NCBI GenBank assembly: GCA_963718525.1
Contig: OY970355.1
Location: forward strand, 2,432,001-2,496,000
Direction: 5' to 3'
Length of the DNA: 64,000 nt
Origin: Candidatus Dormiibacterota bacterium
GTDB lineage: Bacteria; Chloroflexota; Dormibacteria; Aeolococcales; Aeolococcaceae
The translations under genes and the position numbers were made by a program. Below are positions 29,672-42,984 of the stretch, piece by piece (position 1 is the first letter of the stretch; each line of letters opens with the position of its first letter). The notes under the pieces are model-generated. The model saw only the letters and a program-made list of their open reading frames with translations, was not told the origin of the DNA and did not search any database.

Positions 29672-30094
29672 TCAATTGCGCGCTGGCAGGACGAGCACTG
29701 GGCACGGTGCGAGCCGCGGCATCCTCTGCCCGACGCTGTCCGTAACGAGACCGACCAGGCGGCCGTGCCGGCTGGCGCCGGTCACGATCAGGTCTGCCCG
29801 GCATTCCCTCGCGACCTCCGCAAGTGCCGGCGCAGTCTCACCGTATGTGGTCTGGACCTTGAGCTCAGCGTCCACGCCCGCCAGCTTCAGATCGGCGACC
29901 TGATGACGTACCTTCGTCTGCAGCACGTCCTCGTCGGCGGCGACTGGAAAAATGCCGCCGCGCACGGCCATCATCTTGTTGATGTGTGCGACCACAATTC
30001 TGGTACGCCCGTCTCGCGCCAGAGACCGGGCTACGGCCACCACCCGATCGGCCGAATCAGATCCGTCCGAAGCCACCAGAATTGTTGTAAACAT
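29672..30094 (-). CDS. universal stress protein
   Basis: ILVASDGS, ADLIVTG, PCPVLV. Confidence 0.88.
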   Translation of the reverse strand: MFTTILVASDGSDSADRVVAVARSLARDGRTRIVVAHINKMMAVRGGIFPVAADEDVLQTKVRHQVADLKLAGVDAELKVQTTYGETAPALAEVARECRADLIVTGASRHGRLVGLVTDSVGQRMPRLAPCPVLVLPARN

Positions 30095-35626: not shown

Positions 35627-37024
35627 GTGGAGCCTCGCGCCGCAGCCATCTACGCTCGCATCAGCAGTGATGTAGAGGGCTCAGGCCTTGGCGTCGGTCG
35701 CCAGCTCGCCGACTGTCGCGCCTTGGCGAAGAGCCTAGGGTGGACAGTCGCCCAGGAATACGTCGACAACGATCTCTCTGCCTATACGGGCAAGGAGCGA
35801 CCCGCCTACGTGCAGATGCTCGCGGATCTTCACGAGGGCATCCGCGACGCCGTCCTCGTCTACCACCTGGACCAACTCACCCGACGTCCGATCGACCTCG
35901 AACACTTCCTCGCCGTCATTGCAGCCGCACGGGTATCGCACGTTCGCTTCGTGGCGAGCGGTATGGATCTCGCCACGGGCGATGGCTACCTCATGGCCCG
36001 GATGCTGGCCGCCTTCGCCGCCGAGGAGTCCACCGCGAAGAGCCGACGCGTCAGACGGAAGCTCGACGATGTCGCGGCGGCCGGAAGACCACACGGCGGG
36101 TATCAACGACCATTCGGCTACGAGTCGGACAAGATCACGGTCCGCGAAAGCGAAGCCGCGGTCGTCCGCCAGATCGTTGCTCGCTTCACCGCCGGCGAAA
36201 GCTTGCGGTCCCTCTGTCAGTGGCTTGACGAACAGGGGGTGCGCACCGTCAGCGGGAATCGCTGGCGTAGCACAACGCTCCGAGCCATCCTGACGTCCGG
36301 GCGTATCGCTGGTCTCCGCGACCATCGTGGACAGGTCGTCGCGTCCGCCGTTTGGCACGGCCTCATCACGCTCCCGGACCGCGACCGTGTTCTCGCTCGT
36401 TTCGCGGAAATGAAACTCTCGAAACGTCGGGCCCCGCAGCGCTACCTCCTCTCCGGCATGCTGCGCTGCGGTCGATGCAACGGCACCTTGTTTGCTTCAC
36501 CACGCACTCGGACTCGACGACGTTACGTCTGTCTCTCCGGACCCGACCATGGCGGCTGCGGTCGGATTACCGTTACTGCGGCGCCGGTCGAGCAGTTGAT
36601 TGCTGATGCCGTGCTCTACCGCCTCGATACGCCCGAGCTTGCCGACGCCCTCGCCGGACGCGCCGCTGCAGACGAGCGAGCCGCGCTCGTCGCCGATGTT
36701 CTCGCCGCGGATCGCGCTCAGCTGGAAGAACTGACGGACCTGTACGCGTCAAAGCAGATTACCGCCACGGAATGGCTCCGAGCCAGGCGTGGGATCGAGG
36801 ACCGCATCCATGCCGGGGAAGCTCAACTCTCTCGCGCCACCCACACCGAGGCACTAATCGGGCTGCACCGCGGCGACGCGCTTCGCGCTCAGTGGCGCGA
36901 CCTTCCTCTCAGCCGCAAGGTTGCCATCGTCCGTGCCCTGGTCGATCACGCCACCGTTGGCCCGGGGATCAGAGGGGCTCAGCGGCTCGATCCGAACCGT
37001 GTCGAGGCAGTCTGGCGACTCTGA
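35627..37024 (+). CDS. large serine recombinase (integrase)
   Basis: YARISSD catalytic Ser, LDQLTR, RPFGY, zinc ribbon YLLSGMLRCGRC, coiled coil. Confidence 0.95.
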   Translation: MEPRAAAIYARISSDVEGSGLGVGRQLADCRALAKSLGWTVAQEYVDNDLSAYTGKERPAYVQMLADLHEGIRDAVLVYHLDQLTRRPIDLEHFLAVIAAARVSHVRFVASGMDLATGDGYLMARMLAAFAAEESTAKSRRVRRKLDDVAAAGRPHGGYQRPFGYESDKITVRESEAAVVRQIVARFTAGESLRSLCQWLDEQGVRTVSGNRWRSTTLRAILTSGRIAGLRDHRGQVVASAVWHGLITLPDRDRVLARFAEMKLSKRRAPQRYLLSGMLRCGRCNGTLFASPRTRTRRRYVCLSGPDHGGCGRITVTAAPVEQLIADAVLYRLDTPELADALAGRAAADERAALVADVLAADRAQLEELTDLYASKQITATEWLRARRGIEDRIHAGEAQLSRATHTEALIGLHRGDALRAQWRDLPLSRKVAIVRALVDHATVGPGIRGAQRLDPNRVEAVWRL

Positions 37025-37201: not shown

Positions 37202-38530
37202 GAGCCGCCCCGCCACTCAGCGAGCATCCGACGGTGGCGGGCGCGCAAACGTGGACGCGCTGCCTCAATAGCCTCAAACAGCGGCTCATAGCCCGTGTAT
37301 TCGACGACTGCCGCGAGCGTTGGGCCGTACTGCTGCGAGTGATGTCCCTTATCGTGGTGTAAATCCGGGGTGACCTCAGGGCTGCCGACGAGGTAGACAA
37401 AGTAGGCCACCGCGGAGTTCTCTTGGAAGCTCTAACCCAAACCAGGAGACCCACGATGGCCCAGAACAGGATGACGCACCAGGCGCTGATCGATCAACTT
37501 CAGGGCGCGGACACGGACGTGTTGCGACGTGTCCTCGAACACGCCATGCAGCGGCTCATCGAAGCCGAGGCGGCCACGCAGATCGGCGCCGGCCCACACG
37601 AGCGAGCATCGACACGCACCACGTACCGCAACGGCTACCGAGAGCGGGTTCTCGACACCGGCTCGGGACGCCTCGAGCTGCAGATCCCCAAGCTGCGCTC
37701 TGGCAGCTTCTTCCCGTCGCTGCTCGAGCCTCGGCGACGTATCGATCGCGCGCTGCTGGCGGTCGTCCAAGAGGCCTACGTGCTCGGCATCAGCACGCGC
37801 AAGGTCGACGACCTCATGGCCGCCTTGGGTGGCTGCAGCATCAGTCGCAGCGAGGTGAGCCGGATCTGCGCGCTGCTCGACGAGGAGCTCGCCGAGTTCC
37901 GGGAGCGGCCCCTCGATGAGCCGTACCCGTACGTCTGGTTCGACGCGACCTACGAAAAGGTGCGTCAGGGTGCGCGCATCGTGAGCCAAGCGGCGGTGGT
38001 GGCCGTGGGTGTGCGCGACAGCGGCGAGAAGAGCGTGCTCGGGCTTGCGGTCGGCACCAGCGAGAGCGAGGCGTTCTGGCTGGAGTTCTGCCGCAGCCTG
38101 TCGCGACGCGGACTGAGCGGCGTGCAGCTGGTCATCTCCGACGCCCACGAAGGGCTGCGCAGTGCGCTGTCGCAGGTGTTCACTGGGGCGACGTGGCAGC
38201 GCTGCAAGGTGCACTTTCTGCGCAACATGGCCAGCGCGGTCCCCAAGCTCCACGCGCCGGCGGTGCTGGCGGTGGTCAAGTCGATCTTCCTGCAGCCGAC
38301 GCGCGAGACCGCCCGCGACGCGGTGGGGCATGCGCTCACCGTGTTGGAGCCACGCTTTCCCGCGGTGGCAGCCAAGCTGCGTGCGGCTGAGGCCGATGTG
38401 CTCGCCTACCTGGATTTCCCGGTCGACCACTGGCGCTCGATCTCCTCGACCAACGCCATCGAGCGGGTCAATGCCGAGCTCGACCGCCGCGCCAAGGTGG
38501 TGGGCATCTTTCTGCGTCTGTACGCTCTCC

Positions 38531-38718
38531 CGTGGCAGTGGCGGAAGCACCGCTGTTGCTGCGAGGCTCCCGTGGGGCCGAGGGTGACCCGGCATTTTTC
38601 TGTCGAGCCCTCGGGCTCTGACCTGGTTAGGGCCAGTCCCCTCGGTCTTCGCGGGTGGCCGAGTGACCTCATAGCGGCGTGAATACTGAACGGCAGGAAT
38701 GTCCGAGGCCATCCACCC
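38531..38718 (+). ncRNA. IS110 bridge RNA
   Basis: 5' hairpin plus two internal-loop stems whose loop segments match the target flanks and the donor junction. Confidence 0.85.
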
Positions 38719-38740
38719 ATCAACACCACGGAGGGTCGGC

Positions 38741-39796
38741 ATGGTCATCATCGGCATCGATTGCCACACAAGGGTTCATGTGGCTGCAGCCATTGACGGA
38801 TCGGGGCAGGTCTGTGCGCGCTTCACAGCGGGTGCCAAGGCTGAGGAGCTCGAAGCGCTCACAAGGTGGGCGTGCCAACAAGCAGCCGGCCTGATCGCCG
38901 TCGAGGGCGCACGAGGCTTTGGCCTCGCGCTCACTCGATGCCTCCTCGCCGCTGGCTTGGAGGTCGTCGATGTCCCAACGCACATGACCGCTGACGGGCG
39001 CCGTCAGAGCCGCCGTCCGGGAAAGGACGATGAGAGCGATGCGGTGGTCATCGCGCGAGTTGCACTACGTGAACACGACCTGCCGCGGTTGCGTCCGGCG
39101 CATCTTGACTCGGATCTCAAACTGCTGGTGGACGCACGCGATCAGGTTGTTGCAGAAGGCACTCGTGTACGCAACCGGCTGCATGCGCTGCTGCTCACCG
39201 TGTCGCCCGGCTACCGCGATCACACCGGCGCTCTGTCGAGCAAGCGCGCACTCATCGTCGCTCGTCGCTTGGTGCTCCGAGCACGAGCGGCAGATCCGGT
39301 TCGCTGCCGCCTGGCCCTTGCAGCCATTCGCCAACTCCACGCCATCGATGCTGAAGCAGCCGGGCTGGAGGGCGAGATCAAACAAGCCGTGAGCGCAAGG
39401 CACCCGAAGCAGCTGCTCGCCATTTGCGGTGTGAGCACGCTGGTGGCCGGCAAGCTCCTCGGTGAGGCCCACGACATCACACGCTTCCCGACGGCGGCGT
39501 CGTTCGCAGCCCACGCTGGCGCCGCCCCGCTTCCGGCATCGAGCGGCGTCACGCGGCGACACCGTCTCAACCGAGGCGGCAACCGTCAACTCAACCGAGC
39601 CCTCTTCACGATCGCCATGGTGCAGGCACGCTGGCACCCTGGAGCGGTCGCCTATCTGGAGCGAAAACGTGGCGAAGGCAAGCGACCCGCCGAAGCGCGA
39701 CGCTGCCTCATGCGCCACCTTGCGGGTGTCGTCCACCGCGCCATGTTCCTCGACGCGACCGCGGTCAGCGCGAGTTCGGCCATGCCTGCCGCTTGA
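38741..39796 (+). CDS. IS110 recombinase (DEDD RuvC-like + Tnp20)
   Basis: IGIDCH, VEG, KDDESDA, AGAAPLPASSG, RGGNRQLNRAL; RBS GGAGG. Confidence 0.96.
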   Translation: MVIIGIDCHTRVHVAAAIDGSGQVCARFTAGAKAEELEALTRWACQQAAGLIAVEGARGFGLALTRCLLAAGLEVVDVPTHMTADGRRQSRRPGKDDESDAVVIARVALREHDLPRLRPAHLDSDLKLLVDARDQVVAEGTRVRNRLHALLLTVSPGYRDHTGALSSKRALIVARRLVLRARAADPVRCRLALAAIRQLHAIDAEAAGLEGEIKQAVSARHPKQLLAICGVSTLVAGKLLGEAHDITRFPTAASFAAHAGAAPLPASSGVTRRHRLNRGGNRQLNRALFTIAMVQARWHPGAVAYLERKRGEGKRPAEARRCLMRHLAGVVHRAMFLDATAVSASSAMPAA

Positions 39797-40844
39797 CATA
39801 GCGGCGCCCCAACAGCGCCTCACTGCTGCGGCTGTTCACCGCCGTGCTCCAGGACCAGCACGACGAGTGGCAGGACGGTCGCCGACATTTCAGTCAGCAG
39901 TCGATGGCTCGCCTGCTCCACCCCGACGGTCCGCCGTTGCTCACCAACCCGCTCACGGAGGGCCTTGTCGCTTAGTTCACCGACGTTGTGAGAACTCCAC
40001 CGAATTCACACCACTACCCGGGACTTGACCCTGCTGCGCAACGTTGCCGATCGCCTCGTCAGCACTGGGCACTCGTGCCGGCGCGAGGGCTAACTTCCTC
40101 TTCAGGCAGCCCAGGGCGAACTCCGACCACCATGGCGCGGTAACCCAACGAGACCGATTTCCGTCGCGACCCCGATCCTTGAAATCCAGGTAGTGGAGAA
40201 GCAGCTGCCCGAACACCGCCGACCGCTCATTACCGGGCGCCACCGCGACGAGCTCGGCCAAGGCAATGGCATGCTCGTCGCGCGCTTGCATCTCCACGCG
40301 AGTCCACGGCCCGGGCGCTTTCGCTTCGAGCGCCTTGTCGTAAATGCGGACGCGAAGGTCGGACTTTGGCGAGCCGAAGTACAGAGTTCGGCTTTCGGTT
40401 TCACCGAGAGCGTTGACGTACTCCGAGGCGCTCGCCAGCCGAAGATTGCGCACTAGGTGCCCAGCCTTCATCTCTCGATAGCAGCGATCCACACTCAGTG
40501 ACCCGGTTCGGTCATCGAGCGCAACGTCGAGGCGCGTGATCGACCGTCCGCGCTCCAGCAACATCCCGAGGAAGGGTTCCCACTCGGTGACCCGACCCGC
40601 GGCTTCTAGCGCACGGCAAGCCTTGCCGGGCATCCGGACGTGCACGCCCATGCCCGCTCGACCGTCATAGAAAACGTTAGTGCCTTCGGAGAGCCTCGAG
40701 CGCCGGTAGCCCATCGCACCGCGATCGCCCTCGATCCACTCGTCCGACTGGCGCGCGCACACGTCGTCGATGCTTGCCTCGTGCTCGGTCCACTCGAGCC
40801 AATCAACAAAGGCCTCGCTGGTGCGTTCGCCCCCTTCTGTACTG

Positions 40845-40876
40845 GTAACCCCCCTGTTAGTGGTCCGGGGGGTTGC
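40845..40876 (-). promoter_or_regulatory. oriT/dso-like nick-site hairpin inside the relaxase 5' end
   Basis: GCAACCCCCC-GGACCACTAACA-GGGGGGTTAC; resembles the ICEBs1 nicK oriT with CTAAC in the loop. Confidence 0.75.
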
Positions 40877-41265
40877 TGCGCCGTCCTCGACGGACGCGCA
40901 GATGCTTGCCCTCGCATCTTGGGGAGATGGGCCGTCCGAATCGCTGAACACGTCGAATCCTCACGGCTTCGACGGTCCGGTATATCCGTCTCACCACGAG
41001 GGGTTCAGCTACTCTCCACGACGCCGGGCTACTGGTGCCCGCTCCGTTGGCTGTCCGGCGGGCTCGTCTCAATTGAGCCCCTTGTACCGGTGCGTCGCCC
41101 TCGGCCTTATTGGGTCACTTCCCCGCAGGGATACCGGGTTTCCACCGCCGAAGATAGCACATTCGTTCGGTCTCATTCATCCGGCTAGCCAATCGAGCGG
41201 AACACTATCCTGCGCCTTAGCGACATCAATGAGCGAACTCGCGCCGCACCCGCGATGTTGCCGCC

Positions 41266-42984
41266 CTACACCGGGCTAATTGGTACTTCCGAACGACCCT
41301 CCAGTGGTCGAAGATCCAGACTAGTCGAAGGGGTATCCCGCGAAAACTCCACCCAGCATCCAGCGAATTCCGCTGGCTGCTTCACCGTCAATCGGTGAAC
41401 GCCGTTCGCTCGCGGCTGCACATCAACAAGGCGCGCGTCACTAGCACTGCCACCGCCTACCGGGGCTGTGAACTCCATGCCCGGGTTAGTCAGCAGCGCC
41501 TCCATGACCGAGTGCGCTATCCGCTCGACAGCTGCTCGCAGCAGCGTGAACACGGCGCCAGACGGATCAAGCTTGTAGCCGCACCAGGCGGCGACAGCAT
41601 CTATTGAGCCTGGACTCTGTGCGGCTCGCCGCGCTGCCTCGCGTCCTTTAGTTTTGGTCCCCAAGACATCTTCGAGCGTTCCCTGCGGGTGTAGCCACAG
41701 TCCCGCGTCCCTCCAAATTGCCAGCAATCCGTCGATGCGAGCCGCCCAACCCGTGTCCGCAGGTACGTCATTCGCGAGCCACTTTGAACGCGCTTTGGGA
41801 TCGGGTGGAACATTCGCTCTTCTCATCTGCTCCGTCAGAGGCTGCAAGACGCCGGAGGTCCGCGGGGGCTCGGTGTGATACTCGTGCCGGTAGCGTTCCG
41901 TAACCTCCGGCATTGCGTCCATTGCGCGTTGCACCTCCTGTGCAAAGCACGCATCAAGATCCGCAACCGCGCACACGTTGAGACCCATCTTCTTGCAAAT
42001 CTCGTACCACAGAGCAACACCGCCGCTCCCACCACACTCGACGAGGTCTGTCTGTGCGACTACTTCTGCTGGTTGCGTTCGCGCGAGCGATGTGCTTAGC
42101 GCAGAGACGTCATCTACGCCCTCCACTAGCACCGGTCGCGGCGAAAACACGATCTGCCCGATCAAATCGGCGTTGTGTTGCAGTGAGGCGGTGACCCGGT
42201 CCATCTGCGACGCTAGCACGCTGTCGATAATCCGGTCAGGCTTGCGTCCTTGGGAGAAATACCAGATCGCGCTGAGATCCGAAGCTTGTTTCGGACGCAG
42301 AATCGTCGGCTCGTGGGAGACGACAAGTGCTCTTCTGTCTGGCCGACTGCACTCGCGCTCGAGCTCGCCAAGCCAAAGTCGCACCATCGCGGGGTGGAGA
42401 TGAAGCTCAGGTTCGTCAACAACCAGAAGCTGCCAGTCCGTCCGGTAAAGTGCCGTTAGTAGAACGAAGAGCTCGCGCAGCCCATGGCCCTCATCCCTCA
42501 ACAAGGAGTATTCCACGGCGCCAACGCGCACGTAGGGGTCCAGAAAGCCGGACGTCTCGCGCAGCTCGATCACACGATTGAGAGATCTCTGCAGGAACGC
42601 GGCCACTCGCAGCCACACTTCGGGCTGCTCCTTCAGCGCGTACATCTCGTCGATGCCGCTACCGCTCGTTTGCGAGAATCCCCGCGCCTGGTTCCTCTCC
42701 TGCTCCCCGAGCGGAAACCCCCGATGGCCCTCCTGACTCGGAACCGAGGTCCATCCGTAATTCGTGTACGTGCTAAGGCCTGCCAAGCGATCCGTAGCGA
42801 GAAACCGTCCCCCGAGTTGGCTAGCAATCAGCTTTGCAGTACGCGACTTGCCGGTTCCGTTCTGCCCAACGAAATACGTAACGGGATATGCCCAATCCGT
42901 GAGCTCGAAGAATGTTTCCGACCCCGAGCCACCCTTTGGAAAGATCTCGACGGATACCAATTTGACGGGGGGCAACGTCGCCAT
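41266..42984 (-). CDS. OLD-family ATPase-TOPRIM nuclease
   Basis: GQNGTGKS, VVDEPELHLHP, VSHEP, LVEGVDD, ADLD. Confidence 0.85.
   Translation of the reverse strand: MATLPPVKLVSVEIFPKGGSGSETFFELTDWAYPVTYFVGQNGTGKSRTAKLIASQLGGRFLATDRLAGLSTYTNYGWTSVPSQEGHRGFPLGEQERNQARGFSQTSGSGIDEMYALKEQPEVWLRVAAFLQRSLNRVIELRETSGFLDPYVRVGAVEYSLLRDEGHGLRELFVLLTALYRTDWQLLVVDEPELHLHPAMVRLWLGELERECSRPDRRALVVSHEPTILRPKQASDLSAIWYFSQGRKPDRIIDSVLASQMDRVTASLQHNADLIGQIVFSPRPVLVEGVDDVSALSTSLARTQPAEVVAQTDLVECGGSGGVALWYEICKKMGLNVCAVADLDACFAQEVQRAMDAMPEVTERYRHEYHTEPPRTSGVLQPLTEQMRRANVPPDPKARSKWLANDVPADTGWAARIDGLLAIWRDAGLWLHPQGTLEDVLGTKTKGREAARRAAQSPGSIDAVAAWCGYKLDPSGAVFTLLRAAVERIAHSVMEALLTNPGMEFTAPVGGGSASDARLVDVQPRANGVHRLTVKQPAEFAGCWVEFSRDTPSTSLDLRPLEGRSEVPISPV

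Follow-up and report, generated by a model that had tools for sequence, protein, structure and literature searches.

An IS110-group insertion sequence with a predicted bridge RNA, nested in an IS256-family transposase gene of a Candidatus Dormiibacterota genome

The stretch of DNA analysed here, called the window throughout, comprises 64,000 nucleotides (nt) from a Candidatus Dormiibacterota bacterium (GenBank assembly GCA_963718525.1, contig OY970355.1, positions 2,432,001 to 2,496,000, forward strand). Within it, a transposase gene of the IS256/Mutator family is interrupted by an insertion sequence (IS) of the IS110 group at 38513-39806 (Table 1). The 5' part of the host gene ends with the codons ...V-V-G-I-F, and the frame picks up at 39808 as P-N-S-A-S-L-L-R-L-F.... 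The only long open reading frame (ORF) of the element encodes an IS110-family recombinase, and its start lines up with the starts of its homologs. Upstream of this gene lies a non-coding left end of 228 nt (38513-38740), while the right end extends 10 nt beyond the stop codon. An earlier note, made by a model from the letters alone, had described an IS110 bridge RNA element at 38511-39813. The element is indeed there, but that span takes in both core dinucleotides and the right target, which do not belong to the element body. Every coordinate and string of the note is found in the sequence: GGCATTTT at 38591-38598 and GGCATCTT at 38503-38510, GTTAGGG at 38626-38632 opposite CCCCAAC at 39807-39813, CATAGCGGCGT at 38670-38680 with CATAGCGGCG at 39797-39806, and GCAG at 38693-38696 with CTGC at 38512-38515. 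Judged from sequence comparison, the locus very probably holds a complete IS110-group insertion sequence with a bridge RNA in its left end, apparently intact.

Table 1. Features of the IS110-group element, its predicted bridge RNA and the interrupted host gene (window coordinates; L-numbers denote loci).
Feature	Position	Strand	Basis or remark
Interrupted IS256/Mutator-family transposase gene, 5' part (target)	37423-38510	+	Pfam Transposase_mut E 3e-117; 100% identical to uninterrupted paralog L004
Left target and core, GGCATCTT-TC; core = 38511-38512	38503-38512	+	Copy 2 reads CC at the core
IS110-group element body, 1,294 bp, flanking core dinucleotides left out	38513-39806	+	Junctions set against empty sites
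TACGCT, possible -10 hexamer	38521-38526	+	18 nt from the -35 across the joined ends via one core; 3/6 to TATAAT
Bridge RNA, 5' hairpin	38531-38563	+	Minimum free energy and centroid fold; aligns poorly among relatives
Target-binding domain: outer stem, internal loop, inner hairpin (38602-38622)	38574-38649	+	Comparative helices 1 and 2
Left target guide (LTG), GGCAUUUUUC; last two bases opposite the core	38591-38600	+	9/10 to left target (LT) plus core of the window, 8/10 to that of copy 2
Right target guide (RTG), GUUAGGG (38626-38632), and CC (38633-38634) at the handshake-guide position	38626-38634	+	3' strand of loop 1
Donor-binding domain: outer stem and internal loop	38653-38714	+	Comparative helix 3
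Left donor guide (LDG), CAUAGCGGCG, then conserved UG	38670-38681	+	10/10 identical to right end 39797-39806
Right donor guide (RDG), AC-g-GCAGG, then AA (38698-38699) at the handshake-guide position	38690-38699	+	3' strand of loop 2
IS110-family recombinase gene, 351 aa, ATG start behind GGAGGG ribosome-binding site	38741-39796	+	Pfam, NCBIfam, homologs
TTGACA, putative -35 of a junction promoter	39793-39798	+	CTTGAC at the right end of all close relatives inspected
Left donor CATAGCGGCG and right core copy CC (39807-39808)	39797-39808	+	Junction comparison
Type-B-like tract of 25-36 bp inside an otherwise type-A IS256 copy	39807-39831	+	Alignment of 5 right flanks
Right target CCAAC (39809-39813) and 3' part of the IS256-family gene	39809-39975	+	Stop 39973-39975

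The recombinase matches the Pfam domains DEDD_Tnp_IS110 (PF01548, E 6e-25) and Transposase_20 (PF02371, E 3e-19), and it scores 164.5 bits against the NCBIfam equivalog NF033542, 'IS110 family RNA-guided transposase' (cut-off 140). When it is aligned with five homologs of 43-62% identity, D7, E55, D97, D100, S267 and S268 are invariant. A plain sequence search against solved chains aligns only the Tnp domain (ISCro4, E 1e-7; IS621, E 4e-6), the SS of the recombinase being aligned with the SS of ISCro4. The catalytic residues described for IS621 are D11, E60, D102, D105 and S241 (Durrant et al. 2024, PMC11208160; Hiraizumi et al. 2024, PMC11208158), and spacing together with alignment suggests that the D/E/D/D/S residues of the recombinase correspond to them. 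The intact DEDD and Ser motifs named in the earlier note are thus backed by the profile matches and by the invariant residues.

For the analysis of the left end, relatives were taken from genome contigs (9 loci, full-length matches of 59-63% identity), from metagenome contigs (80 loci, 36-73%) and from genomes of the same order (28 loci, 33-45%). Among genome contigs the sequences nearest to the element are 59-64% identical to it, and among metagenome contigs the identity rises to 73%. Twelve well-aligning left ends underlie the comparative structure and the covariance model built on it, R1. The structure has 33 pairs in three helices, which are the outer stem of domain 1, the inner hairpin of domain 1 and the stem of domain 2, and 93.9% of its 394 cells are paired. 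Compensatory change on both sides occurs in 18 of the 33 pairs. Helices 1 and 2 are paired to 89% and 97%, with five and four pairs altered on both sides, and helix 3 is paired to 97%, with 9/12 pairs altered on both sides. None of 500 shuffles matched the observed structure values, and sliding the partners against each other lowers the share of paired cells to 36-53%. Model R1 has 70 matches among the 80 metagenome loci and 28 more in 39 other sources, nearly all of them directly upstream of a recombinase gene; in a search of the 3.3-Mb genome its matches are the two copies of the element and nothing else. An Rfam 15 scan of 38300-40000 gave nothing at or above the gathering score of any family, only sub-threshold chance matches and no bridge-RNA family. 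The single-sequence fold yields the 5' hairpin and the first stem/loop/stem domain. Hence the fold drawn in the earlier note holds for the hairpin and domain 1 in a single sequence, while domain 2 emerges in the comparative structure only. The covariation argues that the left end encodes a conserved, covarying two-loop bridge RNA.

Weak second R1 matches (26-27 bits) lie in L048 (2406-2512), L072 (1235-1378, minus strand) and L056 (203-309, minus strand), and L072 seems to hold a second IS110 left end, differently aimed and on the opposite strand. In L045 (1-210) and L055 (1-223) the donor-binding domain is kept, and the 5' strand of the target-binding loop is gone or replaced; L045 starts at a contig end, and both may be rearranged or truncated copies.

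The two loops hold four segments that relate to the junctions of the element, each in its own sense: the 5' strands are identical to flank or end, and the 3' strands are complementary. The RTG is complementary to the core plus right target (RT; CCCCAAC) at 6/7 positions. In the RDG, GCAGG (38693-38697) pairs with CC-TGC, and AC (38690-38691) with the next GT across a 1-nt bulge. Core pairing is possible for the LTG (UC), the RTG (GG) and the RDG (GG). The UG behind the LDG is conserved family-wide whatever the core, and the LDG of the bridge-RNA family described here does not appear to read the core. The IS621 rule that the core takes part in all four guide pairings does not hold here at the LDG, and this rule is not a condition of family membership. 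The guide and flank strings given in the earlier note are real, but the guides are longer than those listed there, since the LTG runs to 38600 with the core and the RDG consists of GCAGG plus the upstream AC. Likewise its bridge-RNA reading, with loops matching the insertion site, holds up: the guides match the junctions in the IS621 order and sense. The string CATAGCGGCG occurs twice in the 64 kb, where 0.16 occurrences are expected. The LTG string, GGCATTTTTC, recurs exactly at an unrelated position of the minus strand (29947-29956), where the right half-site does not follow it; this occurrence was set aside as a chance match.

The earlier note had named guide/target covariation among homologs as the check on its reading. 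The close subclade consists of 10 element/site pairs, namely the window, L002, L039, L041, L042, L043, L048, L049, L052 and L054; L040 was dropped as identical to L039, and the window and L002 represent one element, which leaves 9 distinct elements. Within this subclade the left ends TGC, TGT and TAC (CCTGC, CCTGT and CCTAC with the core) are tracked by the RDG as GCAGG, ACAGG and GTAGG. At the right end the variants ATAGCGGCG and AGAGCGGCG occur and the LDG changes in step, its ATAG/AGAG change covarying with the right end in L041 and L052. Between subclades the loops diverge widely, yet they follow their own flanks. To put numbers on this, own flanks were compared with permuted ones, for which the flank windows were taken from loci with a guide unlike the one in question at four positions or more. 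The 98 R1 matches gave 66 with all four loop strands and 62 or 61 with enough flank. L045 and L055 were excluded from the junction tables, as they look truncated or rearranged in the target-binding loop, and L053 ends at a contig end; two rows in the own-versus-permuted, handshake and wobble counts, L015 (G143) and L024 (G014), come from genomes flagged as unpublished, and nothing rests on either alone. At least 8/10 LTG positions match the own flank for 27/49 unique guides, against 3.3% of permuted pairs. The RTG matches at 7/7 for 9/42 unique guides (1.5% of permuted pairs) and at 6/7 or better for 30/42 (24%). For the LDG, at least 9/10 is reached by 7/24 unique guides (2.7%), and for the RDG, 7/7 by 8/23 (0.6%). 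Matches as good as those in the window are rare among permuted guide/flank pairs, with an LTG of at least 9/10 in 0.5% and an LDG of 10/10 in 0.3%. Both junctions were found in the expected register at 31 loci. The loci are kin, and these counts therefore overstate independence. By this comparison all four guides track their own flanks, and together with the 18 compensatory pairs of the covariance model this answers the proposed check in favour of the bridge RNA.

The bases at the handshake-guide positions were compared across the family as well. In the element, AA (38698-38699) is complementary to the final two LT bases, TT, and the first C after the GG of the RTG is complementary to the last base of the left donor (LD), G. 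On the donor-loop side the family follows this, with 27/62 Watson-Crick pairs against 16.7 expected, a value reached by 1/2000 shuffles, and 22/62 against 12.4 expected at the second position. On the target-loop side the signal is weak or absent (29/62 against 23.8 expected; 17/62 against 17.2 at the second position).

One could read the repeats of flank and end in the left end at the DNA level, as subterminal binding sites for a protein rather than as RNA guides, and the LDG is indeed a plain direct repeat of the right end. Yet the loops follow the target, and repeats of the ends that served to bind a protein would have no reason to do so. The repeats also sit in internal loops between helices supported by the 18 compensatory pairs, the strands of each loop are opposite in sense, with identity 5' and complement 3', and the whole arrangement reproduces the architecture that has been established experimentally for IS621. 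We therefore regard protein-binding sites as a very improbable explanation.

The bridge RNA would aim the element at other transposons. All ten close pairs are found at one target, the site that codes for VGIF|PN in transposase genes of the IS256 family. The target-site string of the element is GGCATCTTYCCCAAC, and its 15-bp form, GGCATCTT-YC-CCAAC, encodes G-I-F-P-N. From the missing core duplication and the one mismatch in each target guide, the earlier note had suggested either atypical core rules or off-target insertion. The mismatches are real, but they are not anomalous for this family: natural IS110 guides usually have zero to two mismatches to their consensus targets (PMC11208160), the whole subclade uses the same site, and the same RTG mismatch recurs in 5/9 distinct close elements (window/L002, L042, L043, L048 and L049). 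Off-target insertion is thus contradicted. A U stands opposite the first core base in 8/9 distinct close elements. The distribution of the mismatches follows the reading frame of the target. In the 10 close pairs, 25/27 mismatches fall on target positions 3, 6, 9 and 12, the third positions of GGN-ATY-TTY-CCN, and the remaining 2/27 on position 13, where the target codes D and not N. Mismatches affect 4/5 third codon positions and 1/10 others, counts that are not independent. The guides spell GGA/GGC-AUY-UUU-C plus CCU-AAC, an A/T-ending synonymous version of G-I-F-P-N, while the high-GC targets end their codons in G/C. Contigs from the runs of another study contain a variant of the element, with 31-32 differences over ~1,340 nt, at this site in a further IS256 variant; none of the differences lies inside any guide. 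In a limited literature search, no title or abstract among the papers listed dealt with IS110 elements aimed at IS256 transposase genes.

More distant relatives are found at other sites. The flank of L060 reads as an IS256-type frame, and its site, CACGACGA, lies ~15 codons downstream. L076, L080, L083, L084 and L088 are found at a similar CACGATGAG site, of the type CACGA(C/T)GA(G), which may be the same H-D-E-W-coding motif as in L060; their flanks are only candidate IS256 sequences. The corresponding H-D-E-W-coding site of the IS256 copy in the window, CACGACGAGTGG at 39857-39870, is unoccupied. In L018, L022, L038 and L024 the left junction adjoins ...GGTCGCGAGTTCGAG(T/C)CTCGTCTCCCGC, by its look a putative tRNA 3' end, with an LTG match of 9/10.

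The limits of the element and its core dinucleotide were determined with the help of a second copy and of empty sites in the same genome. Copy 2 lies 228 kb away and is 100% identical over query positions 2-1296 (1,295 bp), the only difference being at window position 38511. It interrupts the same codon of an IS256 paralog that is 89% identical to the host gene in the window, and its left junction reads GGCATCTT-CC-TGCGT..., its right junction ...GCGGCG-CC-CCAAC. A pattern search of the 3.3-Mb genome found three empty sites, all in IS256 copies and none elsewhere, so that the genome has five sites in total, all in IS256 paralogs, two occupied and three empty. The empty site of type A (L004) reads GGCATCTTTCCCAAC, that of type B (L006, L007) GGCATCTTCCCCAAC. 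In copy 2, the left junction shares 10 nt and the right junction 7 nt with the 15-nt empty site; hence the 2-nt overlap, CC, is the duplicated core. CC/CC is also found in 9/9 close relatives. In the window copy the left junction reads TC (38511-38512) and the right junction CC (39807-39808); its left flank is of type A, and TC is what a type-A site carries as its core. The lack of a duplicated core reported in the earlier note is therefore true of the window copy but not of copy 2 or the close relatives, and the core rules are not atypical, CC being a canonical duplicated dinucleotide. The comparisons show the anatomy of the element, the RNA structure, the concordance and covariation of guides and flanks, the core and the shared target.

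The unequal junctions of the window copy can be understood from the chemistry of IS621, which cuts the top strands directly after the core (PMC11208160, PMC11208158), so that the left junction keeps the core of the target and the right junction that of the donor. By analogy, a donor with the core CC that enters a TC site should yield TC/CC junctions on the top strand, as found here. The core-facing UC of the LTG is an exact match to TC, and the GG of RTG and RDG can accept T by G:T pairing. Two 2025-26 preprints see integration as mainly a top-strand event (10.1101/2025.10.25.684509; 10.64898/2026.08.31.748434). The junction pair is compatible with this view, and equally with resolution of a Holliday junction followed by replication. 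It would illustrate, in a natural setting, what an exchange of top strands should produce when the two cores differ.

The right flank of the window copy adds a complication. The first 25 bp to the right of the element (39807-39831) carry all five type-B markers, and the sequence is type A again from ~37 bp, while the left side of this IS256 copy is type A to the last base, with three type-A markers retained 24-39 bp from the element. The same arrangement is seen in Logan contigs of two DNA runs, where one unitig covers 38512-39836, a branch follows at 39843, and each of the two left variants has a short contig of its own; these runs may derive from the genome's own sample and then amount to a second assembly, not to independent data. 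As both left variants occur in read-derived contigs, the T at 38511 is no assembly slip. The type-B tract suggests that either a short stretch was converted or the resolution was assisted by homology. The window copy might even have been copied from copy 2 by homologous recombination or gene conversion between the IS256 paralogs, or have inserted independently and been partly overwritten later. We consider this a real possibility, if not the favoured one: no difference separates the two copies over 1,295 bp, and the 25-36 bp of type B correspond to the flank of copy 2 inside an IS256 copy that is otherwise type A and identical to L004. However, a type-A T at 38511 directly abuts the element, where conversion of the whole element should have brought a C unless repair was patchy; the T is genuine, and the type-A markers further left are retained as well. 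An independent insertion, followed by a conversion tract from copy 2 that started inside the element and ended 25-36 bp into the flank, fits all data. In any case the question concerns the history of one copy and not the identity of the element.

A mixed route, which fits as well, can also be imagined: RNA guidance joined the new left target, TC core included, to the left end of the element, and a resolution driven by homology then carried along 25-36 bp of the old site's right flank. The window copy would then record a one-ended transfer of top strands between paralogous sites. Inside 89%-identical IS256 copies, such resolution would replace the second step of the 'direct transfer' pathway, a step described as ~10x less efficient. 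We think this unlikely. If it were true, a combination of RNA-guided strand transfer and homologous repair could spread IS110 elements whose hosts, like IS256, are themselves repeated, and co-conversion tracts in the flanks would be a readable signature of this in genomes.

For the transposition cycle as a whole, IS621 serves as the model, and it is from homology with it that we infer the chemistry, a circular form and a junction promoter. The element would leave as a circle in which the right end (...TTGACATAGCGGCG) is joined through one CC core to the left end (TGCGTCTG...). The donor-binding loop would hold this junction, with the LDG on the bottom strand and the RDG complementary to the core and left end, and the target-binding loop would hold the 15-bp site, with the LTG on the bottom strand and the RTG on the top strand. 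The DEDD/Ser recombinase would then swap strands just 3' of the core, giving an integrated element that is flanked by the core on both sides. Joining of the ends would also bring the putative -35 and -10 hexamers together, and a promoter formed in this way would have its transcription start near the base of the 5' hairpin. A simple scan of the integrated element found no complete promoter of the sigma-70 type. Logan contigs contained no circle (go-back) joint; contigs only were examined, and two runs labelled RNA-Seq may be DNA. Two 'skip 1296' joints were considered as signs of excision and rejected, as they correspond to empty paralogous sites.

Several findings weigh against an active, RNA-guided element, and they deserve to be named together. 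The single-sequence fold lacks the second domain and is not significantly more stable than shuffles (z -1.6). The RTG has an A:C mismatch, with A38629 opposite C, and the UG of the LDG does not pair with the CC core, so that one of the four core contacts of IS621 is absent. Wobble-type mismatches are not enriched family-wide: rU:dG pairing was tried as an account of the T-for-C differences in the LTG and is kept as a chemical possibility only, since the 31 unique LTG/LT pairs, with 50 mismatches in all, show 9 of the wobble type against 10 reverse transitions. TACGCT, as the -10 half of a junction promoter, is weak and poorly conserved in relatives. The kinship of the loci reduces the weight of the covariation counts, and the identical copies with the type-B right tract mean that gene conversion may have shaped or created the window copy. 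One might conclude from the guide mismatches and the missing LDG-core pairing that the element is a decaying relic that has lost transposition, in keeping with the lack of a complete promoter in the integrated state and of a circle joint in the Logan contigs. We hold this for quite unlikely. The ORF is intact and all catalytic residues are kept, the genome has two identical copies, and the variant with 31-32 differences sits at the same site with unchanged guides. Moreover, the same mismatches occur in several diverged relatives, and zero to two of them are usual in natural IS110 elements (PMC11208160). An apparently intact element with a bridge RNA thus remains the preferred reading.

The surroundings of the IS256::IS110 nest look like an integrated mobile element. 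The nest is flanked by a large serine recombinase (35627-37024, plus strand; domains Resolvase, Recombinase and Zn_ribbon_recom), adjoins a Rep_trans rolling-circle replication initiator (39977-40951, minus strand) and is also bordered by an OLD-like AAA/TOPRIM protein (41266-42984, minus strand). The right end of the IS256 copy (~40030) falls within the final ~55 nt of the Rep_trans ORF.

The choice of target may be of wider interest. A whole IS110 subclade aims at conserved codons of IS256 transposases, which would inactivate a competitor and not a host gene, and the available sites multiply with IS256. In close pairs the mismatches are almost only synonymous, which bears on how a guide copes with a drifting coding target. 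For the development of genome writing, a high-GC pair of bridge recombinase and bridge RNA with a CC core would be added to the family now being developed to this end.

Site-specific insertion in high-GC hosts, together with the architecture of the IS110 group, is familiar from actinobacterial members of that group such as IS110 and IS117 of Streptomyces and IS900 of Mycobacterium. The seekRNA elements of the IS1111 group resemble the element in having a DEDD transposase and an RNA-specified target (Siddiquee et al. 2024, PMC11187229). Unlike these elements, which have a short left end, a long right end and the RNA downstream of the gene (PMC11208160), the element described here has its RNA upstream and a right end of 10 bp. 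The closest parallels are IS621 of E. coli and ISCro4 (IS622) (PMC11208160, PMC11208158). They share the RuvC-like DEDD and Tnp(Ser) domains and an RNA in a long left end with the order 5' hairpin, target-binding loop, donor-binding loop. As in IS621, the 5' strand of each loop equals the top strand of the left half-site, its pairing partner thus being the bottom strand, both ends have a copy of a 2-nt core, and the right end carries a putative -35 box. The RDG is discontiguous in both, here with 5+2 nt across a 1-nt bulge and in IS621 with nine RNA nt facing seven DNA bases, and bases at the handshake position are complementary to the partner duplex. The differences are equally clear. The core is CC and not CT, and the UG of the LDG is conserved and unpaired with the core; the matching stretch of the LTG reaches up to 10 nt, and the target is a coding site in another insertion sequence instead of a repetitive extragenic palindromic (REP) element. 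Compared with both IS621 and ISCro4, only the Tnp domain can be aligned by plain sequence search. The established model is unchanged by our findings, and the element itself is a new addition to the IS110 family.

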